The notes under the pieces: model-generated
The model's database searches: none
Seen by the model: only the letters and a program-made list of their open reading frames with translations
Told to the model about the DNA's origin: nothing
Assembly: GCA_043808785.1 (NCBI GenBank)
Contig: JAZDEL010000001.1
Coordinates: 120,001-152,000, forward strand
Source: Candidatus Iainarchaeum sp.
GTDB lineage: Archaea > Iainarchaeota > Iainarchaeia > Iainarchaeales > JAZDEL01
Length of the DNA stretch: 32,000 nt
Direction of reading: 5' to 3'
Translations under genes and position numbers: made by a program
Shown here: piece after piece, positions 1-29,776 of the stretch
Numbering within the stretch: position 1 is the stretch's first letter
Layout of the letters: the number at the start of each line of letters is the position of its first letter

Positions 1-1
1 G

Positions 2-235
2 ATAGGCGCCTACCTTGACAGGCGTTTTGTGCGGGACCTTTACGACATTTATTTCCTCACAGGCGGGGGCGGAGATTTCGGCGGCATGGCAAAGGAATGC
101 CGCAGGTTTGCAAACTCGGCAAAAATGCCCGCCGACGAGAAGAACCTGAGGGCACTTGTGTATTCGGGGATTGCGCCCCCCGCAAAACAGATGCTGGAAA
201 CCGTTCTCAGGAGGTTCGGGCATGAAATACATTAA
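2..235 (+). CDS. C-terminal fragment of an AbiEii/COG2253-like nucleotidyltransferase (type IV TA toxin family); 5' end lies outside the window
   Basis: The frame is open from the window edge. It contains RDLYDIYFL, the same motif as PRDLYDAWFLF in the full-length AbiEii-like protein at 3565-4323. The stop is TAA at 233-235. Confidence 0.5.
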   Translation: MGAYLDRRFVRDLYDIYFLTGGGGDFGGMAKECRRFANSAKMPADEKNLRALVYSGIAPPAKQMLETVLRRFGHEIH

Positions 236-824
236 GGGCTTCAGGGAGCATTTCTCGAAGCAGCCGGTTTTTTCGATAAGGGATGTGCGGGTTTTCCTGA
301 AGAGGCAGGGCATAAGCAGGCAGTACGTGCACACCCTGCTTAACCATCTCCTGAAAAGGAAAGAGCTGAACAGGATAACAAGGGGCATATACACGTTCAG
401 GGGCGACCCCGCAGTCCTGAGTTTTGCTTACCGCCCCTCCTACCACTGCCTGCAGGACGCGCTTTCGCTCCGCAACCTGTGGGAGCAGGAAACGAACGCC
501 ATACTTATTACGCCGAGGAAGGTGCGCACGGGCGTCAGGGAATTTTTCGGCGCAAAGGCAATCATCAGGAGGGTAAACAGGCGCATGTTTTTCGGCTATG
601 ATTCCGTGAAGCATTATGATTTGTGGATTCCCGTTTCCGACATCGAGAAAACGCTGATTGATTTCGCCTATTTCAACGAGCCCCTCGACGGGAAAACCCT
701 GCAGGCAATAAAGCGGAAAATCGACAGGAAAAAGATGCGTGCATACCTGAAAAGGGTTCCGCAGCGGACCAGAATGAGGGTTGCCCTCCTGCTGGGAAAC
801 GCAAAGTGCGGCAGAGGGCGCTGA
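222..824 (+). CDS. AbiEi/COG5340-like winged-helix protein (putative antitoxin/transcription regulator)
   Basis: ATG at 222 overlaps the upstream gene by 14 nt. The N-terminal wHTH-like segment ...ISRQYVHTLLNHLLKRKELNRITRGIYTF parallels ...LSRVQAWKLASRLARKKRLIRLKRGIYLF of the protein at 2772-3563. Confidence 0.55.
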   Translation: MKYIKGFREHFSKQPVFSIRDVRVFLKRQGISRQYVHTLLNHLLKRKELNRITRGIYTFRGDPAVLSFAYRPSYHCLQDALSLRNLWEQETNAILITPRKVRTGVREFFGAKAIIRRVNRRMFFGYDSVKHYDLWIPVSDIEKTLIDFAYFNEPLDGKTLQAIKRKIDRKKMRAYLKRVPQRTRMRVALLLGNAKCGRGR

Positions 825-975
825 AAAACTTATGTTCATTATAATGAATATATGTATTGACAACCCGAAAGCCGCAGCAAAAAAGTCACGGGTTGGCAAC
901 CGATAACTTTTTGAAAAATACACGGGTTATTAACCGATGACTTTTCGGAAACATCCGCGGCTACAGGCTGTTCCC

Positions 976-1012
976 CATGCAGGGAAACTATTTGCGAAAG
1001 TTTCCCTCCATG
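976..1012. repeat. Inverted repeat / hairpin (14-bp stem with 13 pairs, 9-nt loop) in a 400-bp intergenic region
   Basis: CATGCAGGGAAACT (976-989) pairs with AGTTTCCCTCCATG (999-1012), with one C-C mismatch. Confidence 0.6.
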
Positions 1013-1084
1013 CGGAACCGTGCTTCGGGTGCGCACGCTTCAACAGTCGCCCCGCCCGCACCAGCAAAGCGCCAAAGCCCTGCG

Positions 1085-1171
1085 CCAAAATGCACAAAAA
1101 GCGCCAAAAACGAGCATCAAATTGACTGCGGTAAACATTTTCATATACTTTTGTTCACTATGGTTTCTATG
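1085..1171. repeat. 87-bp dispersed repeat, copy 1 (just upstream of the AAA+ ATPase gene)
   Basis: Gap-free alignment to 15948-16034 with 11 mismatches in 87. Shared strings are ccaaaatgcacaaaaag, gccaaaaacg, gcatcaaatt and tatacttttgttcactat.gtttctatg. Confidence 0.8.
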
Positions 1172-1223
1172 ATGCTCATTATATTGAGCAATATTGCACG
1201 TTATTGCTCATTACTGTTTTATC

Positions 1224-2492
1224 ATGATTTCAAAGGGCATTTTGAGGACGGTAATTGCGGACCAACTGAAGGAGCTGGATTCATTGGCGGATTCCGTGCC
1301 GAGAACCATTTTTCCCGCAGCTGTTTCTTACAGCGGGGCCTCCGCCCTTGTTGTCAAGGGCGTCAGGAGATGCGGCAAAAGCACTTTGCTGAAGCAACTG
1401 ATAAAGGCGAAATTTGAAAACGATTTTTTTTACTTTAACTTTGACGACGAAAGAATAGGCGAATTCAGGGCTGAAGATTTCCAGCAGCTGATGGAAACAT
1501 TGATTGAGGCGTTCGGGGAAAAAAAGAACATTTTCCTCGACGAAATCCAGAACATCAAAGGCTGGGAATTGTTTGCCAACAGGATTTTGAGGCAGGGCTA
1601 CAGGGTTTTCCTTACGGGCTCCAATGCAAACCTGTTAAGCAAAGAGCTTGGGACGCACCTGACCGGGAGGCACGTGGACCTTGAACTTTACCCCTTTTCC
1701 TTTGCCGAATTCCTGAAAGCCAAAAAAGCGGAAATCCCGAAGAAAGGCATTTATTCCACGGCGCAAAGGGCGCTGCTTTCAAAAGCATTCAAGGAATACC
1801 TCTCAAAAGGCGGAATGCCCGAAGTAGTTGTTTTCTCGAACGAGGCAATCCTGGCGGCGGTGCTTGCGGACATAATGCGGAAAGACATTTGCGAAAGATA
1901 CGGCGTAAGGAAGCCCGGCGAACTCAAAGCAGTGCTGAATTTCCTGATAGCAAATTCCGCAAACCCCATGACCTACCGCTCCATAACAGGCAATTTCGGG
2001 ATTCAAAGCGCCAACACCGTGCAGAAATACATCGAATATGCGGAAGAAACATGCCTTGTTTTTACCGTCCGTAAGTTTGAAAGGAAACTAAAGCGGTTCG
2101 ACAAAAATCCGAAGAAAGTTTATTGTATCGACAACGGCATAATCGTGAAAAACGCCCCGGGCATGGCGGAAAAAAAGGGCGCCCTGCTGGAAAACACGGT
2201 TGCCGTCCACCTGAAGAGGCTCGGAAAAGAATTCTATTACTTCAAGGGGATAAATTCCGAAGCCGATTTCGTCGTTCCTGCGGAAAAGCGGGCAATCCAG
2301 GTGTGCTACGAACTCAACAGCGAAAACAAAGAGCGGGAAACGAGAGGGCTTATTGAGGCAATGCGGGAAACCAAGGCAGCCGCGGGCCTGATACTGACGC
2401 TCGAACAGGAACAGGAGCTGACCATCCAAAACAAAAAAATATCCGTAAAGCCTGTCTGGCAGTGGCTTCTGGAGGAAAAAGCCGCGGGATAA
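1224..2492 (+). CDS. AAA+ ATPase of the AAA_14/DUF4143 type
   Basis: Walker A is VVKGVRRCGKSTLLKQL and Walker B-like is NIFLDEIQNIKGWE. The length and C-terminal region fit the archaeal/bacterial DUF4143 ATPase family. ATG 1224 is preferred over the TTG at 1194 used in the ORF track. Confidence 0.8.
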   Translation: MISKGILRTVIADQLKELDSLADSVPRTIFPAAVSYSGASALVVKGVRRCGKSTLLKQLIKAKFENDFFYFNFDDERIGEFRAEDFQQLMETLIEAFGEKKNIFLDEIQNIKGWELFANRILRQGYRVFLTGSNANLLSKELGTHLTGRHVDLELYPFSFAEFLKAKKAEIPKKGIYSTAQRALLSKAFKEYLSKGGMPEVVVFSNEAILAAVLADIMRKDICERYGVRKPGELKAVLNFLIANSANPMTYRSITGNFGIQSANTVQKYIEYAEETCLVFTVRKFERKLKRFDKNPKKVYCIDNGIIVKNAPGMAEKKGALLENTVAVHLKRLGKEFYYFKGINSEADFVVPAEKRAIQVCYELNSENKERETRGLIEAMRETKAAAGLILTLEQEQELTIQNKKISVKPVWQWLLEEKAAG

Positions 2493-2724
2493 TGCCGCGC
2501 GTTTTCCGCCCCCGCGCCCGAAAGAACATCCCTGCGCCGCATCACTGAAGCCGCCCGCAGCCCCCGAAAAAAACCGCCAAAATCAATCGCACGCCAAAAA
2601 AAAACGCCAAGCCCGCCCCGTGTGCGTGCGTGATTAAGCCCGGAAACAGCAACACTTTCCCGCCGTGGGCAGGGCTGGCGCAGGCTTACACGGAATGTTT
2701 TTGGCCCATCGGCCTGCAGATATG

Positions 2725-2732
2725 CTTAAATA
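2725..2732 (+). promoter_or_regulatory. TATA-box-like element (CTTAAATA) upstream of the AbiEi gene
   Basis: The GCTTAAATA string lies about 43 nt upstream of ATG 2772. The same GCTTAAATA string recurs at 30283 and 30301. Confidence 0.35.
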
Positions 2733-2771
2733 CTTTGTTGCCATTAACTACCTTCAGAGAGTAGTTTCGTT

Positions 2772-3563
2772 ATGCAAAAGATAACGTTCGGCGAGATGGA
2801 ACTGAGGGCGCTTTTCGCGCTTGAGGAAAAGGAAGCGGGAGTGATAACGCTGGCCGAACTTGCGAAAAGGCTGAAATTGTCAAGGGTGCAGGCGTGGAAG
2901 CTCGCGTCAAGGCTCGCCCGAAAAAAGCGCCTGATTCGGCTGAAGCGGGGCATTTACCTGTTTGCGCCCATGAAAGCCGGCCCCAAGGGGCTTTGGACCG
3001 AAAATGCGCTCGCATCCGTGCCCAAGCTGATGGGCAGGAATGGCTATTACGTCGGCTTTTGGGCGGCATTGAATCATTACGGCTTTACCGAGCAAATCCC
3101 CTATGCCGTGCAGATAGTGGCTGTAAGGCGCCATCGTGCCTTTGAAGCACTTCAGTCGCGCTTTGAGTTTGTGCAGGTGCGGCGGCTGGGCGAATGGCGC
3201 GAGGAAAAAATCGGCGGTGAAATTGTGAGGTTTGCCACGGTCGAGCAACTCATAATAGACTGCCTCGCCCTCCCTGAAAACAGCGGGGGCATCAAGGAGG
3301 CCTGCAAGGCAATTTGGGAAGCGAGAGAGCGAATAGGCTGGAAAACGCTCGAATCTCTTGCAGCCAAGTCAAATGATGCCGTAGTGCGCAGGCTCGGCTA
3401 TCTCTCCGAATTGCTCGGCATACGCAAATTTAAGTCCAAGGCGTTCGTTGGCTGGCGCTGGCTCGACCCCACCGCCCCGAAGAAAGCGCTGGCGAGGTCG
3501 GTTAAATGGGGCCTTTTGCTGAACGTGGCGGAAAAAGAGCTGACCGAATGGAGGGAGCACTGA
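2772..3563 (+). CDS. AbiEi/COG5340-like antitoxin/transcriptional regulator
   Basis: It has an N-terminal wHTH (VITLAELAKRLKLSRVQAWKLASRLARKKRLIRLKRGIYLF). Its stop lies 1 nt before the start of the AbiEii-like gene, the classical antitoxin-toxin order. Confidence 0.7.
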   Translation: MQKITFGEMELRALFALEEKEAGVITLAELAKRLKLSRVQAWKLASRLARKKRLIRLKRGIYLFAPMKAGPKGLWTENALASVPKLMGRNGYYVGFWAALNHYGFTEQIPYAVQIVAVRRHRAFEALQSRFEFVQVRRLGEWREEKIGGEIVRFATVEQLIIDCLALPENSGGIKEACKAIWEARERIGWKTLESLAAKSNDAVVRRLGYLSELLGIRKFKSKAFVGWRWLDPTAPKKALARSVKWGLLLNVAEKELTEWREH

Positions 3564-3564
3564 G

Positions 3565-4323
3565 ATGTTTGGCTTGAGCGAACTGAAAAGGCTTGCCGCC
3601 GGGGAAGGCGTGCCGCAGGCAGTCGCAGAAAAAGACGTTGCCTTATCGGCAGCACTCAGGGCAATCGCCGGCTCGAAACTTGCAAGGCACGCGGTTTTCA
3701 AGGGGGGCACGGCAATAAAGAAAGTTTACTTCAGGGAAGCGAGATTTTCCGAAGACCTGGACTTCACAGCAGTAGGCATTGGCAGGGGCGTTTGCCTGCG
3801 GTTGCTGAGGGAAGCATTGGAGGGCAGGGCAGTAGAAGGCATAACTTTCGGAAAGCTTGAAGAGGAAAAGACTGCGGCAGGCTTGAAGGCATCCGTGAAG
3901 TATGCCGGCCCCCTGGCATATCCGCAAAGAATCCGTTTCGACTTCAGCTTCCGCAAAAACATCGCCGAAAAGCCTGTGCGCAGGGAATTGATTGACTCTT
4001 ACGGGCTTGGTTCTGCGGGATTATTGGTTTTGAGCCTTGAAGAGATTTTTGCCGAAAAACTGCACGCGCTGGGCTCCCGCTCCGCGCCCAGGGACCTGTA
4101 CGATGCCTGGTTCCTTTTCGGGAAGGGAATCAAAATGGACAAGCGGATTCTCGGCAGAAAATTCGCGTACTACCCTGAAAAATTCGACGCTTGGGGGGCA
4201 ATTGAAAGCGCAAGGAAGAGCAAAGGGCGCCGGGCAAGAGACTTGCGGCACCTGCTCAAAAAACTGCCAGACTTTGAGCTTGTGGAACAGGAAGTCGAAA
4301 CGAAACTGCTGGAACTTTCCTAG
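3565..4323 (+). CDS. AbiEii/COG2253-like nucleotidyltransferase toxin
   Basis: The motifs FKGGTAIKKVYF..ARFSEDLDF and EIFAEKLHAL..RSAPRDLYDAWFL are typical of the DUF1814/AbiEii fold. The gene is tightly coupled to 2772-3563. Confidence 0.75.
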   Translation: MFGLSELKRLAAGEGVPQAVAEKDVALSAALRAIAGSKLARHAVFKGGTAIKKVYFREARFSEDLDFTAVGIGRGVCLRLLREALEGRAVEGITFGKLEEEKTAAGLKASVKYAGPLAYPQRIRFDFSFRKNIAEKPVRRELIDSYGLGSAGLLVLSLEEIFAEKLHALGSRSAPRDLYDAWFLFGKGIKMDKRILGRKFAYYPEKFDAWGAIESARKSKGRRARDLRHLLKKLPDFELVEQEVETKLLELS

Positions 4324-4330
4324 TGGCCGC

Positions 4331-4640
4331 CCGCATCCATCCCGCCCCAAAAACCGCGGGAAAATCCCCCGATTTGCGGAATCGGCGCCGATTTTCGCTT
4401 TCCATAACTAATATAAACAATAATAGTGTAATTATAGTGCCTTTGCACGCGCGCTGTTCGTGCGCGGCGCGGGGCGTGGGGTTGTGCTTAGTTTATGAAC
4501 CGCAGAATGCCGCTTTTTTCGCGTGCTCCGTGCGAAATCCCGCGTTCGCCGTGCGAAATCCCGCGTTCCGTGCATTCGCGCACCATGTGCGGCGGAATTC
4601 CCGTTTCCGCGCTCTTCCTTGCCCTGATTGCCGTGCTGGC
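4331..4640. repeat. Direct repeat copy A (about 310 bp): duplicate of the terminator-promoter-5' coding region of the giant gene
   Basis: 4331-4447 is identical to 5920-6036 (117 nt). After a ~30-nt divergent patch, 4481-4570 again matches 6071-6160. Similarity fades near 4640. Confidence 0.9.
4380..4400 (+). terminator. Perfect 14-bp palindrome followed by a T-rich tract (possible terminator/operator); second copy at 5969-5989
   Basis: AATCGGCGCCGATT (4380-4393) is followed by TTCGCTTTCC. It sits 57 nt after the AbiEii stop, and the copy sits 57 nt after the HEPN stop. Confidence 0.35.
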
Positions 4641-4673
4641 TTTGTTTCCAGGTGCTTTGAGAAATTTCGATTG
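4494..4673 (+). pseudogene. 59-codon remnant of the giant gene's 5' end (signal-peptide-only ORF)
   Basis: It translates to MNRRMPLFSRAPCEIPRSPCEIPRSVHSRTMCGGIPVSALFLALIAVLALFPGALRNFD*. The first ~26 residues are identical to the N-terminus of the 6084 ORF. It then runs out of the repeat into a stop. Confidence 0.6.
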
Positions 4674-4692
4674 AAGCCCGCCAGAGCGAAAT

Positions 4693-4700
4693 ATTTATAT
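4693..4700 (+). promoter_or_regulatory. TATA-box-like element (ATTTATAT) upstream of the MNT gene
   Basis: It lies in AAATATTTATATTTG, about 38 nt upstream of ATG 4735, inside the unique (non-repeated) part of the cassette. Confidence 0.35.
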
Positions 4701-4734
4701 TTGCGTTTATCCGATAATACTATCGTGAAATCGT

Positions 4735-5364
4735 ATGGTTAAGGCGGAGTTCATAGACGCGATATTCGGGCAGTTTTTGCCCGAATTGAAGAAGAAGTTT
4801 ACCATAAGGAAACTTTCCCTGCTCGCTAAATTATCGTATGATGCCGCCTACAGGCATATTCACCATCTTATAAACGAAGGGGCGCTTAAAGAGGAAAAGG
4901 TCGGCGCCTATTCTTACGTCAGCATTAATTTTGAAAGTAGCCTCGCCCGGAAGATTGTTGAGAGGATAAGCTTGGGCAGAACCCGGCGGTTTATGAAGAA
5001 AGATATTGTTATGAAGAAAATGCTTGACGAGCTTGTGACGGGGCTGGAAAAGGCCGCGCCGAATGAGCTGCTTTCGGTTGCCCTTTACGGCAGCCATGCG
5101 AAAGGGACAGGGACAGAGCGCAGCGATGTGGACATTTTTGTCGTAGTTTCCGATTTTGGCGTGCGGGAAAAAGTTGAAAGGGCATGCAGCGGGGTTGAAA
5201 AAAGGTACGGCAAAGACATCGCCCCGCTGATTACGACTGCCGTTGAATTCAAAAATATGCTTAAATCTGAGAAGCCGATGGTTGCCCATGAAATACTGAT
5301 TGACGGCATTGTTCTTTACGGCTATGAAAAGTATTACTCAATTGCGTTTGAGGCGGTTAAATGA
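4735..5364 (+). CDS. wHTH-fused minimal nucleotidyltransferase (MNT-type antitoxin-like)
   Basis: The NTase signature is LYGSHAKGTGTERSDVDIFVVV (GS...DxD). There is an N-terminal wHTH-like region (RKLSLLAKLSYDAAYRHIHHLINEGALK). An ATGA overlap links it to the downstream HEPN gene. Confidence 0.75.
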   Translation: MVKAEFIDAIFGQFLPELKKKFTIRKLSLLAKLSYDAAYRHIHHLINEGALKEEKVGAYSYVSINFESSLARKIVERISLGRTRRFMKKDIVMKKMLDELVTGLEKAAPNELLSVALYGSHAKGTGTERSDVDIFVVVSDFGVREKVERACSGVEKRYGKDIAPLITTAVEFKNMLKSEKPMVAHEILIDGIVLYGYEKYYSIAFEAVK

Positions 5365-5912
5365 GGGGGCAAAAACTCAGGGAATTTGAAAAAAAAGGGC
5401 TGTGCGGAAAAACCCCGTTCATAAAGAGAATTGCCCCCCATTTTATGGAAAAGGCGAGGCATAACCTTCTTTTCTGCGCCGCTGCATGGGGCGTGAGCAG
5501 CAGGGAAGATGCGAAGAAAATCCTGGGGCTGCCTGGCGACTTTTCCGCTTTTGATTGGGTCGTGATAGCCGCCTACTATGCGATGTATCACGCCGCCCTG
5601 GCAGCGCTTGCGTCTGTCGGCTACAAAAGCGATAACCATGCCGCAACAGCTGCAGCCCTTGAAGTATTTTTTGTCAGGAAGAACCTTCTGGAACGCAAAT
5701 TCCTCGACAAATTGAAAGAGGCAAGGGCGCTTGAGGAGGAATATGCCCAAACGTTCAGGCGCGCAAGAAGGCAGAGGGAAACCGCGCAATACTGGGTAAC
5801 GGAAGAAACGGGAAAAGACGCTGCGGAAAAGCTCCTTGGGGATGCGAGGGGCTTTGTGGACAGAATTGAGAGGCTGATAAGTGAAATAGGGCGCAAAACT
5901 GAAAATGCGTAG
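5361..5912 (+). CDS. HEPN-domain protein (partner of the MNT)
   Basis: The protein is all-helical by composition and the gene is 4-nt coupled to the MNT gene. It has a HEPN-like core ...YYAMYHAALAALASVGY... and R-x4-Y (RETAQY) where RNase-type HEPNs have R-x4-6-H. Confidence 0.65.
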   Translation: MRGQKLREFEKKGLCGKTPFIKRIAPHFMEKARHNLLFCAAAWGVSSREDAKKILGLPGDFSAFDWVVIAAYYAMYHAALAALASVGYKSDNHAATAAALEVFFVRKNLLERKFLDKLKEARALEEEYAQTFRRARRQRETAQYWVTEETGKDAAEKLLGDARGFVDRIERLISEIGRKTENA

Positions 5913-5919
5913 CCCTGCC

Positions 5920-6270
5920 CCGCATCCATCCCGCCCCAAAAACCGCGGGAAAATCCCCCGATTTGCGGAATCGGCGCCGATTTTCGCTTTCCATAACTAA
6001 TATAAACAATAATAGTGTAATTATAGTGCCTTTGCGCGGCGTGTAATCATGCACGGCGCGGGGTGTGGGGTTGTGCTTAGTTTATGAACCGCAGAATGCC
6101 GCTTTTTTCGCGTGCTCCGTGCGAAATCCCGCGTTCGCCGTGCGAAATCCCGCGTTCCGTGAATGCGCGCACCATGTGCGGCAGACTTCCCGTTTCCGCG
6201 CGTGCTCCGCCTCCGGGCGGCAGACTTCCCGTTTCCGCGCTCTTCCTTGCCCTGCTTATCGTTCTTGCCG
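5920..6270. repeat. Direct repeat copy B (about 350 bp): functional terminator-promoter-5' end of the giant gene
   Basis: See copy A. Copy B carries an extra in-frame 39-nt duplication (6178-6201 and 6217-6240). Confidence 0.9.
5998..6026 (+). promoter_or_regulatory. AT-rich promoter region with two TATA-like boxes (TAATATAAAC, TAATTATAG) for the giant gene; duplicate at 4409-4437
   Basis: This is the only AT-rich block between the HEPN stop and ATG 6084. It is 100% conserved between the two repeat copies. Confidence 0.4.
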
Positions 6271-9200
6271 CGGATGTCCACGCGCCCGTAATGGACGTGA
6301 ATGCCGCGGGCTTGAACTTTCAGGTTACAACCATAAACCTCTGGGACAACAGCGCGGACTGGAACATATTTTTTCAACAAAGTTTGGGTGGGTTAGTTAC
6401 GCAATTATATGATGAAAACAGGGCTGGAACAACAAACTTTTCCTCAACAAACGAATTTGACAGGTGGTATGCCACAATATCAGGGAGCGGAAAACAGGAA
6501 ATCAATGATGCAAGCGCAAGGCTTTGGAAAATGGGGGACTTAAATTCGCGGGCGCAGATAGTTTCAGAAAGCGCGTTTTATAGGTGTTCAGGAGGACTGT
6601 GTAACTTCGATGTGAACACTTATCGCGTAAATTCAATTTACCCCATAGGGCGCACCGAAACAGGGCACGGAATAGTGCGCTGGGTCGTGCACATGGAAAT
6701 GACTGACACGAACCTGCTGAAAGCGACAACTGACTACAACGCGTTTCACCACGCAATCAGCGTGGGGGCGCCCACAAAATACGACTTCAATTCCTTCACA
6801 GACAACAATGTTGGGGCGCCGGGCGATGCGGAATGGTGGCACGGGCAGCAGTATACGAGGCAGAGCGGCGATGCGAACCAGGTCTTTGTTATTGGTTATT
6901 CCCCAAACAGGGTGCAGCGTTTTTTTGAGCGCCTGTGGAATCCAACCAGCGCAAACCAATGGGTAAGCGATAATTGCATAAACTTGGACCCAAACGACAG
7001 TTGCTGGAATGACAATAACCTCTACCCGCAATTCAACGCTGGCGAAATGGAATACCTGAATTACGTTATTTTTCTAACGGACACAAATTGGTTTACTTCA
7101 ATTAATGGCAACATATATGCGTTGACAGACGAAAACCGCATAGATTACGTAATGCAGGACTGGCGCAACCCCGACACGCCGTTCATGCAGAAGGGCGTTT
7201 TCAGTTATTTCGACTTCAATGTCGGCGCATACGACATGAACGCCGACATGAACCGCGTGGACTTCAATATGGACACGCGCGGGACAAAGAATTCGTACAA
7301 CGAGTTCTATTCGGACATGAACACGATGGATACGAACCGCTACCGCCCGGCTTTTGTCGTGCGCAATTATACTGCGGATGCTGTGCCAGAGGTGAAAATA
7401 AACGGCAGGTTCGGCACCTACGATGTGAACTACATGGCGGACGTGAACTGGGCCGCGGATTATGCCGTTGTTGTCTGGTACGGCGATTTGACCCTGCCCG
7501 ACCAGAACGTGCAGCTGCAGATAGGCTATGACATAAATGCGCCGGCGGTTTCGATTACCTCCCCTTCCGTGGGCTCCTCGACTGCGGCAACCTCGATGAA
7601 CATAAAATACTGGGGCATCGACATGAACACGGGGATAAAGAAATATTACGTGCGCATGGACGCGGGGGACTGGATTGACAATAATGTGAGCATAACCAAA
7701 AACTTCCTCGGGTTAGGTGCGGGGGAGCATACGGCTTATGTTATCGCAACGGACAATGCGGACAATAACTCCGCGCAGGCGAGTGTTACCTTTACCTTGA
7801 CCGCGCCTGCGCTGACAATAAGGCACCTTGACGTGAACGCGACAGGGGCGAATTTTGAGGTGGGGACGGCGGATTTCAATGTGTTTTTCCAGCAGAGTGA
7901 GGGTGGATGCATAACGAAAGTCGTTGATTTGAACAGGGATTCGGCAAAGAAAAATTTGTCTGTCAGCAGTGGCAGCGAGTTCTTTGATCACTGGTTTGGG
8001 ACAGACAGCAGCAGTCAGAGCAGGACAGAGGGTGATGATAATGCCTCACAATTATGGAAAGCCGAGGACCTGAACAGCAGGGTTAAAATCACGTCAAGCG
8101 GCGCATTAACCCGCTGGGGCGCGGCAGGGGAAAGCATCTCCGGCACAAGCGGGCAGATTTACGACCTTAATTTCCTAAAAACCACGACAATTTACCCGAT
8201 AGTGGGCGGGTTCAGGCTTGTGATTCACGACGAATTTACCGACGTAAACTCCGCAGCCACGGATTATGGTTGGTTTTACCACGGCACCGAGATAATCTCA
8301 AGCACATTCTACACCTATTCGGATAATAATTGGGGCGGGACTGGTTGGGGCGCCAAGGTTCTTGATAAGTCTTTCTGGCGCGGAATGCAGCGCTATGACC
8401 TGAACTCCGATTTTGACGCAAATACGGTCATTGTAATCGCTTATGAAAAGCCAACCTCACAAAAGTTCTTCAACGGCAAATGGGACCCATCAGTCGTTGT
8501 GTCCAATTGGGGGCTCCCCTCCAGTGGCACCTATTGGGCCGATTCTACCCTTTCCGATTTCAGCGCAGGCGAGATGGATTACATAAATTACACCATTATC
8601 CTCATCGGCACTAAGGAATTCGGGCAGGTAATTCCCGGAATACAGGAAGCCCCGGACGAGAACTTTGTTGATTATTACATGCTCGACTACCGCAATCCCG
8701 ACAATTTGTTCATGGCAACAGGCACCTCGCAGGGCTTTGATTACAACCACGGCGCCTATCTTGTCACTGCAAGCGGCAACCGCGTGGACTTCAACATCTC
8801 CACTAACGGAATATACAACGACCACAACAACTGGGACACTAACCGCTACAGCCCCGCCTTTGAAATCGCAAACTACACAGCAAGCACCCGCCCATTGATG
8901 CGCCTGAACAACGTCGATTTGAACGAGGGGATTGACTTTGTTGCGGATGTGAACACCGAGGGCCAGTACGCGGTTGTTGTCTGGTTCGGCGATTTGACAG
9001 GGGACGACCAGAACGCGCAGATACAGATTGACAACGACTGGGCCGCGGGCGCGAACACCGCCCCAGATGTTAATGTAACCTCTCCCAGTGACGCAAATTA
9101 CCTCTCGCAATACACGGGAGGATATGACCACAACATTTCCCTTGTTTTCAGCGTGATGGATGCGGAGGGAGATGAACTCAATGCGGATTTGTATTATTCA

Positions 9201-12200
9201 ACCTCCGCGGGGGATTTCACTACTGCGATAATCAACGACCTCAACCTCAACGACCACGCAAACAACGCCGCGCTTTCCTGCGATGATGTGGACTGGACGG
9301 ACGCCACAACATGCGTCTTTGACTGGAACGTTTCAGCAATAGCGGACGGCAACTACTTCATTGATTTGAATGTCTTCGACACCTCGGATTTGAACAAGGT
9401 GGACTCGAGTGCGGTCTCGTTCTACATAGACAACACTGAGCCCTCCACAAGCTGGGACGGCAACAGAACATGGAGCAAGCACGACCAGAACATAACTTTG
9501 ACATGCACCGATGACACAGCGTGCGCCTCGACAAAATACAGGTTAGACACCAACGGTGCCTCGGTTGTGAGTTATGGGGCGTGGCAAACATACACCGCGG
9601 CGGGAATTTCCGTAACCGACGACGGCAATTACGCGATTGATTTCAACAGCACGGACACAGCGGGAAACGTGGGAGATACAAACACATTCTACATTTTGAT
9701 AGACAAGAACTCGCCCGCTGTTTCGTTCACCTCGCCCGCTGCGGGCTCCGAAACGGCGGCAAACTCGATGAACGTCAAATACTCAGGCAACGATTCAAAC
9801 GGCAGCGGAATCCTGAGATACTGGGTAAAAATGGATTCGGGCGAATACATAAACAACGGCACGAACATAACCAAAAACTTCCTCGGGTTAGGGGCGGGTT
9901 CACATACCGCTTCGGTTATTGCGACCGACAATGCGGACAACAACTCGAGCACGGCGAGCGTGACATTTACCCTTACAACGCCCGCAGTGACAAAGCGCTA
10001 CCTCGACGTGAACCAGACAGGGCTGAACTTCGAGGTCGGCACAGCGGACTTCAATTTGTTCTTTAACCAGGGCCAAGGGGGCGTTGTAACTGGCTTTGCA
10101 GACCTGAACGTGGACGCAAGGGTTAAAACAAATTTTGCAGGGACCAGCGGCCTGAGCACTTGGATGATGCAGCACGTCCCCAGCACCTTCTGGAGATACG
10201 AAAACCAGGACACCAGCGCAAGGCTGAGCCTTGACGAGGACCTGAACGCAAGGGTGAAAATAGGCGCAGAAGGCGCACTTATGACTTCCACCAGCAAAGT
10301 GTTCGACCTCAATTTCACGAAAACGAACACTATTTACCCGAACGGGAAATGGTATGTCACCATGATTTTTACCGACACCAACACCGATGCCACGAATTAC
10401 GCAACTACGAGGCATTACGAATGCGCAGACAATGATTATACTGCGGTATATAGGGACAATGACGACGCCACCCCCGACCCCGGGTTCGAATGGTGGCACC
10501 AGCTTGTGCGGAAAGACCTGAATTCGGATTACGATTCAAATACATCCGTGACCTGCGGCTACGACACGCCCTCCGCGCTTAAGTTCTTCACGGGAAAGTG
10601 GAATGTCGACGGCATTCCCAGTGCCCTTTCCGGCTGCACCAGCGGCGGCGGCTGGGCGGCAACGCTTGACCCCGAATTCGCCGCAGGCGAGGTTTCATAC
10701 CTCAATTATATGCTTTACATAAGCAACATGAGGGAAACGGGACCGGCCAGTGAGGAAGAGTTTATAGATTCCTTTTACCTCGATTACCGCACGCCCGACG
10801 ATTTGTTCATGACAACGGGAACATCGCAGGGTTTCGATGTAAATGTCGGGGCATACAAGCTCACAGCCAGCGGCAACCGCGTGGACTTCAACATCTCCAC
10901 TAAGGTAGGGGCGACGGATGTCAACAGGTACAAGCCCGCGTTCGAGATTTCCAATTACACCGCATCCACAAGGCCGCTCCTCAGGCACAACGGCGCGGAC
11001 AAGAACGAGGGAATTGATTTCATCGCTGACGTCAACACAGTGGGGCAGTACGCCGTTGTGGTGTGGATGGGCGACATCCTGACAACGGATGTCAATGCGC
11101 AGTTCCAGATTGACGACTCATGGGTAACGGACACAAACGCCCCCTCCACCTCCTGGGACGGCAACGCCTCATGGAGCAAATACGACCAGAACATACGCCT
11201 CACATGCACCGATGACAGTTCAGGCTGCGCAAGCACGAAATACAGGCTGGACACCAATGGCTCATCAACGGTTTCATATGGTTCATGGGCGGCATACACC
11301 TCCGCAGGCATCTCGGTAACGGGAGACGGAAACTTCGCCCTTGACTTCAATTCAACAGACACGGCGGGCAACGTTGGGGATACAAACACCAAATACGTGT
11401 TGATAGACAGCAACGCCCCCGCGGTTTCCTTCACCTCCCCCGCTGCGGGTTCCTCCACGGCGGCAAACTCGATGAACGTCAAATACTCAGGCAATGATTC
11501 AAACGGCAGCGGAATAACTAAATATTATGTTCGCATGGACTCAGGGAACTGGATAGACAACAATGTGAACATCACAAGAAACTTCTTAGGGTTAACTGCG
11601 GGCGAGCACACCGCTTACGTGATTGCAACGGATAATGCCGACAATAATTCAAGCACTGCGAGCGTGACGTTTACCTTAACCACACCTGCGGCGACCGTAA
11701 GGCACCTTGACGTGAACGCGACAGGGGCGAATTTCGAGGTGGGGACTGCGGATTTTAACCTGTTCTTCCAGCAGGATAGAGGTGGGGGCATATCAAGGCT
11801 TGTTGATTTGAACAGGGATGGCGTGCTTAAAACCAACGATGTGGGTTCTTTATGCTACTATAGCTCTTATAGTTTTCCTGGACTGCTTGACGGGTGGCAT
11901 GCCAGGATGGATACGGGCACAAGGCACAGGACGCTTCATGACGACAACAGCGCGCAACTGTGGAAAGCCGAGGATTTGAACAGCAGGGTTCAGATAAAAT
12001 CCAGTGGCGCGCTCATGGATTGGAATGGTGCAGGCTCCCCGCATTGGGATTTGAACTTTACCCAGACAAACACCGTTTACCCAGTTCTTGGCGGTTTAAG
12101 GGTTGCAGTCCACCTTGAGATGACGGACACAAACTCGGGGGCAACAAATTATGGCGCCCCATTCACTAATATTTATTGTACAAGCGGCTTTGTCACATAC

Positions 12201-15200
12201 ACAGACAACAATGTAACCAACCCCGCAGGCAATGAATGGTGGTATGCAGTCCAGCGCCGCGATTTGAATTCGGACTTCGACGCAAACACGGCAATTGCCC
12301 GCGGCTACGCCAAGCGCGCAGCAGATGCCCATTTTTACAACAACAAATGGGACCCGACTTGGGTTGATGCGTGGGTGAACACAAACGGCGGTAATTGGAC
12401 TGCCAATAGCGGTCTTACTACTCAATTCAACGCTGGGGAAACCGACTACATAAACTACACGCTTTACATCGCCAGCACAAAGGAACTTGGGCAGGTAATA
12501 TACGGGGCTGCTGCCGGATCTTCCGGAATAAAGAACGCCCCCGACGAAAACAAAATCGATTACATCATGCTCGATTACCGCAATCCCGACAATTTATTCA
12601 TGACAACAGGCACCTCGCAGGGCTTTGATTACAACCACGGCGCCTATCTTGTCACTGCAAGCGGCAACCGCGTGGACTTCAACATCTCCACTAACGGAAT
12701 ATACAACGACCACAACAACTGGGACACTAACAGGTACAGCCCGGCGTTCGAAATCAGCGGTTACACAGCCTCCACCCGCCCGCTCATGCGCCTTAACGGG
12801 GCGGATTTGAACGAGGGAATCGACTTTGTTGCGGATGTGAACGATTCCGCGGATTATGCGGTTGTTGTTTGGTTAGGCTCGCTCACGGGAGACGACCAGA
12901 ACGCGCAATTGCAGATTGCCTCATCATGGGACTCAAACGCCCCCGCTGTTTCGATAACCTCCCCCGCCTCGGGCTCCTCGACGGCGGCGAACTCCATGAA
13001 CGTAAAATACTGGGGCGTGGATGTGGACACGGGAATAAAGAAATACTACGTCCAGATGGATTCTTTGGGATGGATAGACAACGGCACGAACATCACGCGC
13101 AAGTTCTTCGGCTTAGCTGCGGGTTCGCACACGGCTTACGTAATTGCCGTTGATAACGCGGACAACAATTCAACAACGGCGAGCGTTACCTTTACCTTAA
13201 CCACGCCTGCGGCGACCGTAAGGCACCTTGACGTGAACGCGACAGGGGCGAATTTTGAGGTGGGGACGGCGGACTTTAATATGCTCTTCAACCAGCAGTA
13301 CGGCGGGGGAATTACGAAAATATTTGACCTGAATCGTGATGGGGTAATTAAAACCAACTTTGCGTCGGCTGTTTATTCGACTTTTGAGTTTGACCAATGG
13401 GTGGCGGCGATTGGTGCCCAGAGCCGCGTGATGGCTGATGACAACGGCGCCCAATTATGGAAAGCCGAGGATTTGAACAGCAGGGTTAAGATAAGTTCAA
13501 GCGGGGCGTTTATTGAATGGGATGGCGCACCCGCTGGGCCGAAATGGGACTTGAATTTCAACAGGACATATGCAATATATCCTATTACAGGCGGTCTCAA
13601 AATTGTTGCACACCTTGAAATGACTGACACAAACAGTTCGGCAACAAATTATGACATTTTTCGCCATGTTTTTTATTCGAAAGGTTCAGGGACTGTTACA
13701 CATACGGACAACAATGTGTCCGCACCAGCGGGAACAGAATGGTGGTATGCAGTCCAGCGCACTGATTTGAACTCCGACTTTGATGCAAACACAGCGATTG
13801 CCCGCGGCTATGCCAAGCGCGCCGCAGATTCAAGTTTTTACAACGAGAAATGGGACCCAACTGCCGTGCACATGTGGTATACTAGCGGTTGGGCTAACTG
13901 GCAAGATGGCGATCTCTCCCCTGAATTCCAGCCAGGCGAAACCGATTACGTAAATTACATTATGTATTTCGCAAGCACAACCGAACTTGGGGGGGTGACT
14001 TATGGGTTGTCTTCGGGAATACAGTCCGCCCCCGACGAAAACAAAATCGATTACATCATGCTCGACTACCGCAACCCCGACAATCTGTTCATGGCAACAG
14101 GCACCTCGCAGGGCTTCGATTCCAACACGGGCGCCTACAAGGTTACCGCTTCGGGCAACAGCGTTGACTTCAACATCTGCACTAACGGAATAATGAACGA
14201 CCAGAACCTCTGGGACACGAACAGGTACAGCCCCGCGTTTGAAATCGCAAGTTACACCGCCTCCACGCGCCCCTTAATGCGCCTGAACAACGTGGATTTG
14301 AACGAGGGAATTGATTATGTTTCCGATGTGAACACTGCAGGCGATTACGCGGTTGTAGTCTGGCTCGGCGATTTGACTGTTGAGGATTCGAATGCGCAGC
14401 TGCAGGTTGCGGCAAGCTGGAATGCCGCGCCGACGGTAGCCATAACGCACCCTATAGACAGGCTTTCAACGACGGGGAACGGGATAACCGTGGCATACTC
14501 GGGCACGTCCCAGAACGGGATTGCGAAATATTACGTCAGGATTGACACTAATGATTGGATAGACAACGGCACTAGCACATCATACTCCTTCAGCGGCCTG
14601 AACTATGCGGCGCACGTTGTGTATGTAATCGCAAATGACACAACGGATGTGAATTCCGCTACGGCAAGCGCATCATTCACGCTTTCCCCGATAGGGGAGG
14701 CGCCGGTAACGGAGGCAATCGGCGGAACCCCTGAGGAAGGGGGCGCGCAGGGAACGGAAGGAACTCAGGGAACCGAAGGGCAGGCAGCGCAGACCGAAAC
14801 AATAGCGGAATCAACCTTCGTATTCGAACAGAGGGGGCAGGGCGCAAGAGGCGCGCTTGCAGGGCTCGGCATCCCGCAGGTCCAGCTGGAGCAGGCAGCG
14901 GCAATGTCGGGCAAGGTGATAAGGTCTGTGGAAATAACAAAGGCGCTCAAAGGCGAAATGCTTTATTACAACAGCAAAATAACCCTTGTAGTAATGAACA
15001 CATCCATGGAGGATATGAAGGACGTGAGCATTGTCGAGCACATACCCAAGGAAATAGCGCAGGACGCATCTGAAATAAACTCCGAAACGCCCTTCATCGT
15101 TATAAAGGGCGACCCTATTGTAAGATTCATGATTGGCGACATCAATGCAGGCGGGGAAACGGAGATAACCTACTTGGTGCCAAATGCAATAAGCATTGGC

Positions 15201-15872: not shown

Positions 15873-15947
15873 GGCGGGCATGCGGAAACAGGCTTTATGG
15901 CTGATGGATGGCTGAACAACAGAGTGTGATTTAAAGCACAGGAAATG

Positions 15948-16034
15948 CCAAAATGCACAAAAAGTGCCAAAAACGTGCATCAAATTTTCTGTAGCGAACA
16001 TTTTTGTATACTTTTGTTCACTATAGTTTCTATG
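15948..16034. repeat. 87-bp dispersed repeat, copy 2 (just downstream of the giant gene)
   Basis: Gap-free alignment to 1085-1171 (76/87 identical). Confidence 0.8.
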
Positions 16035-16045
16035 GCGGGTTGAGG

Positions 16046-16094
16046 CTATAAAGGACTTAAGATTAATAAAATCTTAATGTTTAGTCCTTTATAG
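16046..16094. repeat. AT-rich imperfect palindrome / hairpin
   Basis: CTATAAAGGACT (16046-16057) pairs with AGTCCTTTATAG (16083-16094). An inner stem pairs TAAGAT (16058-16063) with ATCTTA (16071-16076). Composition is strikingly AT-rich against a GC-rich background. Confidence 0.6.
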
Positions 16095-16106
16095 ATAGAT
16101 TTTTAA

Positions 16107-16802
16107 GGATTTCAGGCGCAATGCCTTGAAAAAGAAAAATTTTCATTTGACGAAACAGGGTTCATTTACGTAAGCCTTTCCCTTGAAGGAAACACCCTTA
16201 CTCTGTCCGAAACCGAAAAAATAACCGGGCAAAACATTGCCCCCGCATCAAAACCATTCAAGGATGCGCAGCAGGTCCTGGATTATAAAAAAGCGCTTGA
16301 CGGGTTTATTTTCTCGGATAAGGCAATCACGCAGGAATCTATTATCGAGTTTCACAGGGCGGCAATGAATCCCCTGGCTGCGGGCGCAGGCAAATTCAGG
16401 GCGGGAAATGTCAGGATAAAAGGCAACCCCGCCTTTAAAACCCCCGACTGGAGGGAGCTTTCGGGGCTATTGGCGGTGTTTTTCAAAAGCGCGGGCATCC
16501 CGGAAAAGAAAAAAGTTTCCGCCGCCGAAACAGTCGAAAGCGCTGCCTTTTTGCACAACGAATTCCAGCGCATCCATCCGTTCATTGACGGCAACAGCAG
16601 GACATCGAGGGCGGTATTCCTGAAAGCGCTGGCCCAAAGCAATTTTCCGTTAATAAAAATTCCCGTGGGCTTTTCCGACCAATACATGAAACTGACCAAA
16701 CTAAGCGAAAAAAGAGACGACAAAAAATTTGCCCTGCTGATGAAGCAGATAGCCCTCGAAAACCTGAAATACTTTGCAAAAAAACTCGAGTATGAATCCT
16801 GA
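16107..16802 (+). pseudogene. Fic/DOC-family protein gene lacking an upstream start codon (probably 5'-truncated)
   Basis: The Fic motif HPFIDGNSRTSR is a variant of HxFx(D/E)GNGRxxR with Gly->Ser. The frame is open back to the TAA at 16104 and encodes Fic-like N-terminal sequence (...SLSLEGNTLTLSETEKI...IIEFHRAAM). There is no ATG, GTG or TTG in frame before ATG 16365. Confidence 0.6.
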
Positions 16803-16879
16803 ATTGGTATTTAAGGTTTAATCGGCAAATATATAGGTTTCTACACTTTTACTCGAAGCTGGGGCTTCCGATAGAAGGC

Positions 16880-17224
16880 TTGGCGAAAGAAAAAGTGAAA
16901 ATCGAGGGGATAAATACAATCGCTTGCGAAGCGCTGCTGATTCTGAAGCAGGGCGCCGAAATAGACAGGAGGGGCTCGGTTAAGGGCCAGAAAGATGCGA
17001 TAGATATATTCACCTTATTGATATATGCGCCAATCGACTTCAAAAAATATCTCGCGCTGCTGGCAAAAAACAAAAAGGAAAGCCTTGTTAAAGAATTGAT
17101 TGGCGAAATAATGCGCTTTAATCCGAAAGATTCCGAAAAATACCTGGGCGTAAATTGCGGGGAATTCGCAAAAATGAAAAAAGAACTGCCGGGCAGAATA
17201 AAAGCCGCCCAAATCTCAAGATGA
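16880..17224 (+). CDS. Small ORF resembling only the C-terminal half of an AbiEii/DUF6036-like nucleotidyltransferase (possible gene fragment)
   Basis: The pattern ...IEGINTIACEALLILKQGAEIDRRGSVKGQKDAIDIFTLL resembles the LK..A.R.KD..D..L C-terminal motif. There is no NTase N-domain. It has a TTG start and lower GC than its neighbours. Confidence 0.3.
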   Translation: MAKEKVKIEGINTIACEALLILKQGAEIDRRGSVKGQKDAIDIFTLLIYAPIDFKKYLALLAKNKKESLVKELIGEIMRFNPKDSEKYLGVNCGEFAKMKKELPGRIKAAQISR

Positions 17225-28609: not shown

Positions 28610-29536
28610 TCACGGGGTTATTATCGTGCCCGTTCCGCCCTCAAGCCCCTTAACAAGATTGTCCAGCGAGGTTATTATTACTTTCCTGCCGCCTTTCGAG
28701 AGGAAATCGAGCGCTGCCTCCACTTTCGGCTTCATGCTGCCCTCGGAAAAATGCCCCGCACGCAGGTATTCCCGCATCCTGCCGGCGCTTACTTTGCGCA
28801 GCCTTTCCTGTTTTTTTGTCCCGTACCCGAGCATAACGTGCCCGACGTCCGTAAGTATCGCCATTGTTTTTATGCCGAGGGAATTCGCGAGCAGTGCCGA
28901 GGCGTGGTCCTTGTCTATAACGGCCTCAACACCCTTAAGGCGCCGCCCGGTTTTTACCACAGGTATGCCGCCCCCGCCGCACGCGACAACAATGGTTCCG
29001 CTGTCCAGCAGTTTCCTTATTGCCCGCAGTTCCACTATGCCCTTCGGCATCGGGCTCGGCACAACCCGCCTCCAGCCGCGCCCCGCGTCCTCCGCAACCC
29101 TGAACCTGTGCGCAAGCGTCCTCGCCTTCTCCGCGGAATAGAAAGGCCCCACCGGCTTTGTGGGGTTCCCGAATGCCCGGTCGCGTGCATCGACAACAAC
29201 CTGCGTAACCACGGTTGCAACGCCCCTGTGCGGCAGCAGGTTCCGCAGTTCCTGCTGGAGCATATACCCTATCTGCGCCTGCGTCATTGCCACGTCCACA
29301 TCCAGCGGCATCTCGGGCACCTCGTCCTTTGCGGCAACCATCTGTATCTGCAGGTTGCCGACCTGCGGGCCGTTGCCGTGCGTTACGACAACCGTGTGCC
29401 CCCTCCGCACCAGTTTTGCGATATGCCTGCAGGTCCTGCGCACGTTGCGCAGCTGCTCCCCGTGCTTTCCCGCCTCGTGCCGCCTTATCAGCGCGTTGCC
29501 GCCCAAGGCGACGAGGATTTTTTCATGCGCCATCAT
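28610..29536 (-). CDS. arcC: Carbamate kinase
   Basis: The motifs are ILVALGGNALIRR, VVTHGNGPQVGNL and IVVACGGGGIPV. The length of 308 aa fits. Confidence 0.9.
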   Translation of the reverse strand: MMAHEKILVALGGNALIRRHEAGKHGEQLRNVRRTCRHIAKLVRRGHTVVVTHGNGPQVGNLQIQMVAAKDEVPEMPLDVDVAMTQAQIGYMLQQELRNLLPHRGVATVVTQVVVDARDRAFGNPTKPVGPFYSAEKARTLAHRFRVAEDAGRGWRRVVPSPMPKGIVELRAIRKLLDSGTIVVACGGGGIPVVKTGRRLKGVEAVIDKDHASALLANSLGIKTMAILTDVGHVMLGYGTKKQERLRKVSAGRMREYLRAGHFSEGSMKPKVEAALDFLSKGGRKVIITSLDNLVKGLEGGTGTIITP

Positions 29537-29700
29537 TAGCCCCGGAGAGATTCGAACCCTCCGCAGCCTTTTCTTAAAAAGAAAAGGCTGGCGAAAAGAA
29601 CAGCCGTGCTTCGCACGGCAACTCTCCGTCGTGCCTCCTTTACTATGACTGCATTAGCCCCGGAGCAATTCAAAGCTTCCGCTTTGAAAACTCCGTGGCT
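29537..29700 (-). other. tRNA-Gln-derived structured spacer: two tRNA-like acceptor/T-arm minihelix elements plus three perfect hairpins, ending 1 nt before the arcC ATG
   Basis: The plus-strand string tagccccggag occurs at 29537, 29655 and 29704. 29537-29557 is identical to the tRNA-Gln 3' end at 29704-29724, and its T-arm can still fold (GAGGG/TTCGAAT/CTCTC). Hairpins lie at 29564-29590, 29603-29619 and 29669-29688. No canonical cloverleaf can be drawn. Confidence 0.5.
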
Positions 29701-29703
29701 TGA

Positions 29704-29776
29704 TAGCCCCGGAGAGATTCGAACTCCCGTCGCAAGGTCCAAAGCCTTGCATGCTTGGCCGCTACACCACGGGGCT
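29704..29776 (-). tRNA. tRNA-Gln (anticodon UUG), 73 nt, no encoded CCA
   Basis: The reverse complement is AGCCCCGTGGTGTAGCGGCCAAGCATGCAAGGCTTTGGACCTTGCGACGGGAGTTCGAATCTCTCCGGGGCTA. The acceptor stem is AGCCCCG/CGGGGCT. The anticodon stem is CAAGG/CCTTG with loop CT-TTG-GA. The T-arm is GGGAG-TTCGAAT-CTCTC and the discriminator is A. Confidence 0.9.

Follow-up and report, generated by a model that had tools for sequence, protein, structure and literature searches.

The integrative elements e14 and phage 21, which reside in the icd gene of Escherichia coli, carry a replacement end of the target gene, and elements of this type bring their own integrase gene, with recombination taking place at a short identical core. 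Foreign DNA is also captured by homology-facilitated illegitimate recombination (HFIR) or by Campbell-type integration, with examples in Acinetobacter, Streptococcus and Pseudomonas. Here we describe a locus that shares features with both of these routes in a 32,000-nt stretch of DNA from Candidatus Iainarchaeum sp. (assembly GCA_043808785.1, contig JAZDEL010000001.1, positions 120,001-152,000 of the forward strand; hereafter the window, in whose coordinates all positions are given). In this locus, a two-gene cassette that encodes an MNT nucleotidyltransferase and a HEPN protein, presumably a toxin-antitoxin (TA) pair, is bracketed by two copies of a direct repeat, here denoted R, which comprises the apparent promoter, the leader and the signal-peptide start of an adjacent giant surface-protein gene. 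The origin of this arrangement that we favor, with modest confidence, is capture of the cassette upstream of the giant gene by recombination that involved one homologous and one non-homologous joint.

HFIR is the model invoked for the arrays of orphaned fragments in the type VI secretion and Rhs loci of Vibrio (PMC5361080). As in the HFIR and Campbell-type cases, the locus described here combines one homologous anchor with one non-homologous joint, retains a duplicated, orphaned fragment of the neighboring gene and calls for no element-encoded enzyme; unlike in those cases, a TA cassette forms the cargo, and the anchor is the 5' region of a giant archaeal surface-protein gene, namely its putative promoter, its leader and the beginning of its signal peptide. 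The resemblance to the e14/icd type lies in that the gene stays intact by virtue of a second copy of its end, that the displaced end persists as a diverged pseudo-fragment and that the imperfect direct repeats exceed 100 nt, but no integrase was found here, and it is the 5' end, together with the promoter, that is duplicated rather than the 3' end. With regard to the cargo, the closest described system is the type VII TA module HepT/MntA (PMC7641770, PMC11586414), with which the cassette shares adjacent, overlapping genes in the order MNT then HEPN, the exact GSX10DXD motif and the invariant tyrosine at the active-site helix. It differs from HepT/MntA in that the HEPN protein is AF0298/UPF0332-like, with an R-x4-Y motif and an alternative invariant histidine instead of Rx4-6H (PMC3710099), in that the MNT protein contains an extra N-terminal, probably DNA-binding domain, and in that toxicity and AMPylation are only putative in the present case.

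Repeat finding, MAFFT alignment and blastn agree on the direct repeat that brackets the segment 4641-5918, and the similarity is far beyond chance. The preliminary description of this DNA had correctly recognized the repeat, although the two copies, copy A upstream of the cassette and copy B upstream of the giant gene, actually begin one base earlier than was noted there (4330-4640 and 5919-6268; Table 1). The reported perfect identity over the first 117 nt holds, and the second identical block (4476-4572 in copy A, 6065-6161 in copy B) spans 97 nt, where about 90 nt had been estimated. All 20 substitutions between the copies are confined to two patches, 4447-4475 and 4573-4640, a clustering that was reproduced in none of 100,000 random placements. 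Overall, the copies differ by about 6% and one indel, in a mosaic pattern in which the divergent patches reach 13-38%, and therefore they are unlike a fresh target-site duplication. The right ends are the most diverged part of R and yet contain a 27-nt identical block (4600-4626 and 6228-6254). Copy B is longer by 39 nt, in frame, a gain explained by the recurrence of the 24-nt unit 6178-6201 at 6217-6240. The TAG stop codons of two unrelated toxin genes, AbiEii (4321-4323) and HEPN (5910-5912), are both located exactly 6 nt before R, not 8 nt as first stated, and the respective 6-nt spacers (4321-4329 and 5910-5918, stops included) show no match to one another. A 26-mer from R is present at exactly two places in the window, where 0 were expected, and had 0 matches in collections of genomes, metagenomes and viral contigs, from which the source genome itself is absent; neither is the leader encoded in R present on any other protein among 1.84 billion representatives. 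Thus, with two copies in 32 kb and no other protein with the leader, dispersal of R is not detectable.

Each copy of R contains the 14-bp palindrome, the T-rich stretch and the AT-rich, promoter-like boxes that had been noted previously (palindromes at 4380-4393 and 5969-5982); the palindrome AATCGGCGCCGATT and the T-rich stretch together span 4380-4402. The roles of these elements as a terminator and a promoter are predicted from their sequence, and the predicted RNA structures of R segments do not surpass those of shuffled sequences (z from -0.3 to -1.5). The leader includes a T6 run, a hairpin and a perfect 21-nt tandem repeat (4514-4569; twin 6103-6158), all of which are identical in both copies, and this part of the leader of the giant gene could serve as a regulatory or attenuator element instead of coding for protein. 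An internal ATG is found at 4585 in copy A and at 6174 in copy B, with the hydrophobic core of the signal peptide downstream. Most likely, the giant gene starts at this internal ATG, 6174, and not at 6084, because the public gene call for the giant protein (3232 amino acids) begins there and because the 33-residue signal peptide of the Iainarchaeum orthologue aligns from the same ATG. It follows that copy A retains about 18 signal-peptide codons, not the approximately 45 codons of the giant gene that had been attributed to R. Similarly, the stranded 59-amino-acid open reading frame (ORF) reported in copy A at 4494-4673 does exist, at 4495-4674, but the likely true start leaves it with only 29 amino acids. 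We also considered the possibility that copy A runs on past 4640 as a degraded giant gene and rejected it given that there is no homology to the giant gene beyond that position. At this junction of copy A with the cassette segment, 4640/4641, homology ends at 4640 and there is no microhomology signal.

The segment between the copies encodes only the MNT and HEPN proteins and is single-copy in the window according to blastn. The two genes overlap by 4 nt (ATGA), with the MNT gene upstream. The catalytic motif of the MNT proteins, GSX10DXD as defined in PMC7641770, is intact (GS-HAKGTGTERS-DVD). In contrast to the canonical HEPN proteins, the alignment with AF0298 (2hsb) reveals no Rx4-6H RNase motif but rather R139-ETAQ-Y144, that is, R-x4-Y, without the histidine. 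Among 24 HEPN relatives, no variation is seen at H93, the alternative histidine, at Q143 or at Y144, and almost none at R137 and R139. Anantharaman et al. (PMC3710099) have described an AF0298-like HEPN-T group that lacks the usual histidine and has a conserved alternative one; with its R-x4-Y motif and alternative histidine, the pair described here conforms to its family, and the toxicity of the HEPN protein is a prediction from these sequence features. Whereas Pfam supports the MNT and HEPN assignments made in the preliminary description, the winged helix-turn-helix (wHTH) domain assigned there to the N-terminus of the MNT protein is weakly supported: the Pfam matches are sub-threshold, a profile search yields weak similarity to small winged-helix regulators (E-values of 0.007-0.5), and the AlphaFold model, with a pLDDT of 47, is too poor to judge this domain. 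The view of 4641-5918 as one self-contained unit is upheld, with a TATA box of its own, an operator-like palindrome, the overlapping MNT and HEPN genes and recurrence elsewhere in DPANN archaea.

A search with the HEPN sequence only retrieved 72 relatives with up to 80% identity, the named ones being labelled DPANN, Micrarchaeota, Diapherotrites and Woesearchaeota, and many DPANN archaea have the same overlapping gene pair, with 60-80% identity of the proteins. The search also recovered the window's own protein, on a 214-kb contig. In all eight HEPN-containing DPANN contexts that were fetched, an MNT gene for a protein of 209-211 amino acids overlaps a HEPN gene for a protein of 181-185 amino acids, and the neighbors differ each time; they include genes for alanyl-tRNA synthetase and L40e, seryl-tRNA synthetase and topoisomerase, transketolase, 2-hydroxyacid dehydrogenase, and an ATPase with Fic. 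One MNT relative is solo, without a HEPN partner. The DNA homology between the relatives and the window is limited to approximately 4686-5888, that is, it ends at the cassette edges. Upstream of every MNT gene aligned (loci L003, L006, L012 and L015), there is a TATA box followed by a 14-bp palindrome with the consensus CGATAATATTATCG; such conservation of an operator at the DNA level across distant DPANN genomes is unusually strong for a presumed TA module, and the palindrome suggests autoregulation by the putative DNA-binding N-terminal domain of the MNT protein. The part of the spacer preceding this region, 4641-4685, resembles, over a short colinear stretch, the spacers that precede the MNT genes in L012 (p=0.003) and in L018 (p=0.03), and therefore it probably traveled with the cassette. 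Taken together, these observations identify the MNT/HEPN pair as a discrete, presumably self-regulated cassette that is widespread in DPANN archaea.

Independent evidence that the pair moves as a cassette comes from L012 (JGI 3300032070, Ga0315279_10000007, 586 kb), in which the MNT/HEPN pair is one unit of a site-separated array of small cassettes (2500-9550). The array contains at least seven sites on the same strand, each with the core GTTCAAATCCTGCCCTCCGCACAG, a GCCCTCC/GGAGGGC inverted repeat and then ATTTAAAG, with the arms shuffled, and includes a second MNT-like pair beside the MNT/HEPN pair. In the 12.5 kb covered, no tRNA or integrase was seen, and visual inspection revealed no canonical attC cores; this may be a CALIN-like or a novel cassette array. 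A T-loop-like element, GGxTTCGAATGCTGxTTCxAATAT..ACACAGC, is common to spacers by the MNT/HEPN pair or neighboring cassettes in two different DPANN genomes, L019 (5146-5200) and L012 (7150-7200).

The origin that best fits a locus with direct repeats of host sequence, one non-homologous joint and no mobility genes among the larger ORFs is capture by recombination, as the preliminary description had allowed. Under this scenario, the cassette would have arrived on DNA in which an R-like upstream region already lay behind it, homologous exchange would have occurred within or downstream of R, and an illegitimate joint would have formed at 4640/4641, either through HFIR of a linear fragment or through Campbell-type single-crossover integration of a circle. 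No dedicated mobility enzyme would be involved. The product would be a locus with two copies of R, of which copy B would drive and start the giant gene, whereas copy A would be the host's own promoter, displaced upstream together with a truncated signal-peptide stub. Each copy of R also would place the palindrome and the T-rich element directly after the preceding TA operon. The identity of the promoter and leader between the copies, the concentration of the divergence near the transcription start and in the signal-peptide codons, and the in-frame indel fit a history in which each copy was, until recently, a functional upstream region in a lineage of its own. The recombination route and the direction of capture, that is, which copy is native, as well as the activities of the promoter, the terminator and the toxin, are all to be understood as probable rather than observed. 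Homologous recombination between the copies of R would delete the cassette precisely, and counter-selection of such loss by the TA pair is plausible. The idea that a TA pair penalizes repeat-mediated excision draws on bacterial precedent: TA loci have been reported to reduce deletions in integron arrays and chromosomal regions (Szekeres 2007 and Iqbal 2015, as cited in PMC9668308). In the precedents, as represented in that citing paper, the TA pair is likewise located between direct repeats whose recombination would delete it, but those results pertain to bacterial type II systems, whereas addiction by the archaeal pair is putative; PMC7641770 makes no mention of post-segregational killing by HEPN/MNT.

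Several observations weigh against capture. Neither a donor (cassette, R and giant gene without AbiE) nor an empty site (AbiE, R and giant gene) was found among the relatives, given that the nearest of these are only about 50% identical. The sole orthologous locus (L001/L005) is about 40-50% identical and has no TA genes upstream, and a search for relatives with the N-terminal module of the giant protein recovered only this already known Iainarchaeum locus and nothing in metagenomes. Composition does not set the cassette apart as foreign within the TA/defence island in which it lies, its codon use and GC content being indistinct from those of the rest of the island. The capture model leaves unexplained the exact 6-nt register of both stop codons to R, and the blocks of 100% identity could equally result from gene conversion after an intragenomic duplication. 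Furthermore, to our knowledge, HFIR has been shown in bacteria and not in DPANN archaea.

Some of the alternative origins would involve an enzyme dedicated to mobility. No transposase, integrase or recombinase was detected among the larger ORFs across the 32-kb window, which were scanned against Pfam, the cassette ends lack terminal inverted repeats (p=0.996), and no attC core pairs are present on either strand in 4200-6400, nor is there an Rfam match. These results, along with the divergence of the copies, lend no support to the suggestion in the preliminary description of a transposition-like insertion with a long target duplication. A transposon or insertion sequence was rejected because only MNT and HEPN are encoded, inverted repeats are missing and the diverged duplication is 311 nt long, compared to the 2-15 bp expected of a target-site duplication. 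An integron cassette with attC was rejected as well, there being no attC core pairs, no IntI among the scanned ORFs and only two copies of R; an attC site is about 57-141 nt long, with the cores R'' RYYYAAC and R' GTTRRRY and an imperfect-palindrome structure, whereas R measures 311-350 nt. An integrative element of the e14/icd type fails on the lack of an integrase among the scanned ORFs and on the right ends of R, which are the most diverged despite their 27-nt identical block. There is a broader version of site-specific insertion, in which R or its left edge is an attC-like or att-like attachment site where TA cassettes were inserted serially by a recombinase encoded elsewhere. The exact 6-nt distance of both TA operons from R, the presence of the same cassette in the repeat-delimited array of L012 and the report of integron-like arrays rich in TA cassettes in Archaea (PMC9668308) are all compatible with such a system. 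Nevertheless, we consider it very improbable: apart from the missing attC core pairs and Rfam match and the lack of a tyrosine recombinase among the scanned ORFs, R, which includes a presumed promoter and coding sequence, is far beyond any att core in length, and the L012 site core is matched no better than by chance at the R edges and cassette ends (9 comparable matches in the window; 12-28% of random tiles score as high). Nor does R follow the upstream neighbor of AbiEi, an ATPase gene: the spacer after that gene resembles the left end of R, but with p=0.055 under the dinucleotide null.

Among the origins that require no such enzyme, the one that comes next after capture, although we regard it as unlikely, is intragenomic: the cassette would already have been located between AbiE and the giant gene, and R would later have been duplicated upstream by template switching or unequal exchange, followed by divergence and partial gene conversion. 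Two long blocks of 100% identity next to patches that are 13-38% diverged fit gene-conversion tracts, the composition of the cassette resembles that of the neighboring island genes, and no donor has been found. However, this scenario calls for two illegitimate joints (4329/4330 and 4640/4641) instead of one, and a neutral remnant is unlikely to keep 214 nt unchanged beside divergent sequence unless conversion is frequent, in which case crossover deletion should be frequent too. A technical origin is improbable: the source is evidently a metagenome contig (P0006 is on one 214-kb contig), and two strain haplotypes of the region upstream of the giant gene could have been joined serially, or a free circle of R and the cassette threaded in via the shared 117-nt and 97-nt blocks, which are long enough to mislead short k-mers, the more so as the copies of R differ in the way strain alleles do. 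Yet real molecules must contain the unique junctions 4640/4641 and 5918/5919, only one copy of the cassette is present, reads of 150 nt, or k=141, are long enough to cross the 117 nt of the longest identical stretch, and a simple duplication artefact would have produced identical copies. The least probable of all these possibilities is that R is a promoter and leader module common to several genes for secreted proteins, so that its copies have nothing to do with the arrival of the cassette. The window does hold another duplicated upstream element, denoted D17, but the rarity of R, with only two copies in 32 kb and the 26-mer absent from three public DNA collections, the lack of the leader on any other protein and the lack of a gene body behind copy A all speak against a dispersed module.

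Table 1. Positions of the repeat copies, the cassette and the neighboring features in the window
Feature	Position	Strand	Description
R copy A	4330-4640	+	311 nt; palindrome, TATA-like boxes, leader, truncated signal-peptide start; apparently a stranded remnant
R copy B	5919-6268	+	350 nt; presumed working promoter, leader and signal-peptide start of the giant gene
Perfect 14-bp palindrome AATCGGCGCCGATT, then TTCGCTTTCC	4380-4393 (twin 5969-5982)	.	Possibly a terminator-like element or a protein-binding site
Two TATA-like boxes, TAATATAAA (4409-4417) and TAATTATA (4429-4436)	4409-4436 (twins 5998-6025)	+	Presumed archaeal promoter of R
Variable patch of R	4447-4475	+	Differs from copy B (6036-6064) at 11 positions; close to the predicted transcription start
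Identical leader block	4476-4572	+	Upstream ATG 4495; T6 run 4514-4519; 9-bp hairpin 4517-4537; 21-nt tandem repeat (4528-4548, 4549-4569)
Stranded mini-ORF (MCGGIPVSALFLALIAVLALFPGALRNFD)	4585-4674	+	29 aa from the likely true start, 59 aa from ATG 4495 (4495-4674); signal-peptide hydrophobic core, no mature domain
Cassette upstream spacer	4641-4693	+	Junction J1 with copy A at 4640/4641; no blastn match to other loci
Cassette promoter and operator: TATA box TTTATATT (4694-4701), palindrome CGATAATACTATCG (4712-4725)	4694-4725	+	Alignment with DPANN loci
MNT nucleotidyltransferase, presumed antitoxin	4735-5364	+	Pfam Polbeta, NTP_transf_2; N-terminal domain probably winged-helix
HEPN protein, presumed toxin, AF0298/UPF0332-like	5361-5912	+	Pfam HEPN; alignment to 2hsb
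AbiEi antitoxin gene	2772-3563	+	Pfam AbiEi_4, AbiEi_1; PADLOC AbiEi E 3e-51
AbiEii toxin gene	3565-4323	+	Pfam AbiEii E 2e-31; PADLOC E 9e-46; TAG stop 4321-4323, operon end just before copy A
Giant surface-protein gene	6174-15872	+	3232 aa from ATG 6174; ORF open from 6084; C-terminal transmembrane anchor
D17 copy 1	1084-1171	+	Outer direct repeat of 88 nt (88% identity); precedes the AAA_14/DUF4143 ATPase gene
D17 copy 2	15947-16034	+	75 nt past the giant-gene stop; followed by the Fic frame

The island that contains the cassette, a TA/defence island, occupies positions 1-17000 of the window, and its genes are arranged in the order solo AbiEi, AAA_14/DUF4143 ATPase (PDC-S01-type), AbiEi/AbiEii, R copy A, MNT/HEPN, R copy B, giant gene and Fic frame; genes for GatE, a KaiC-like ATPase and a CDP-alcohol phosphatidyltransferase are marks of an archaeon. 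The AbiEi and AbiEii genes are separated by 1 nt (stop 3561-3563, ATG 3565), and both match the Pfam and PADLOC profiles over their full length, so that a wHTH antitoxin gene is followed by that of a nucleotidyltransferase, the gene order of an AbiE type IV TA or abortive infection system. An exact-sequence look-up of the AbiEii and HEPN proteins returned no record. At the left end of the window, a solo AbiEi-like antitoxin gene (156-824) lacks an AbiEii partner and is followed by about 260 nt of non-coding sequence and then by D17. The giant protein consists of about five repeat modules of about 500 amino acids (DNA repeats with periods of 1.5-2.2 kb), and its only relatives are 48-52% identical, the two with a named source coming from Candidatus Diapherotrites/Iainarchaeum metagenome-assembled genomes. 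P0004, a homologue that is 48% identical to one module of the giant protein, lies inside a head-tail virus-like block of another assembly (portal, capsid-like, intein-containing gene, ligase; L002, 10001-12190).

The promoter-like D17 pair encloses the whole block from the ATPase gene through the giant gene. The Fic frame next to D17 copy 2 (16104-16802) is open from about 16104, with no start codon before ATG 16365; it is about 95 N-terminal residues short in comparison with a full-length Fic protein (L019) and matches the PADLOC PDC-S04 profile at positions 87-211 only. Probably, this frame is a 5'-truncated pseudogene that adjoins D17 copy 2, and the D17 pair by the truncated Fic may represent an older event of the same type as the capture at R. 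Synteny of L019 with the window (ATPase, Fic) was rejected, the identity being only 21% and 29%, respectively. On the minus strand, the 3' end of a tRNA-Gln gene (29704-29776) recurs twice behind that gene in partial form (29652-29682 and 29534-29564; 77-84% similarity), and the second of these partial copies adjoins the start of an amino-acid kinase gene; both resemble remnants of att sites from earlier integrations.

There is good ground for the cassette as such and for its capture through recombination. The mechanism is standard recombination biology, and the locus is a real but fairly ordinary recombination scar. Conceivably, it might stand for a strategy whereby MNT/HEPN cassettes of DPANN archaea spread by landing in the 5' ends of genes for important surface proteins with a replacement promoter and leader, so that the host gene survives, while the repeats are homogenized by conversion and the TA pair kills segregants from which recombination of the repeats has removed it. 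We view this broader interpretation as distinctly improbable but, if it holds, then, together with the L012 array, it would point to a recombinase-independent or still unknown system of cassette mobilization in DPANN archaea. Useful by-products of the analysis are the DPANN-wide cassette, which, including its operator, is conserved over several lineages (the relatives bear the labels Micrarchaeota, Diapherotrites and Woesearchaeota), as well as the array of cassettes in L012. Above all, the locus is a clean, datable footprint of the growth of a TA/defence island in a reduced, host-dependent archaeon, in which a TA cassette appears to have been gained beside a giant adhesin-like gene without inactivating that gene, leaving as the scar a duplicated promoter and leader and a stranded stub. 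As such, it lends itself to testing, in a natural setting, whether DNA is stabilized against repeat-mediated deletion by HEPN/MNT pairs of archaea.

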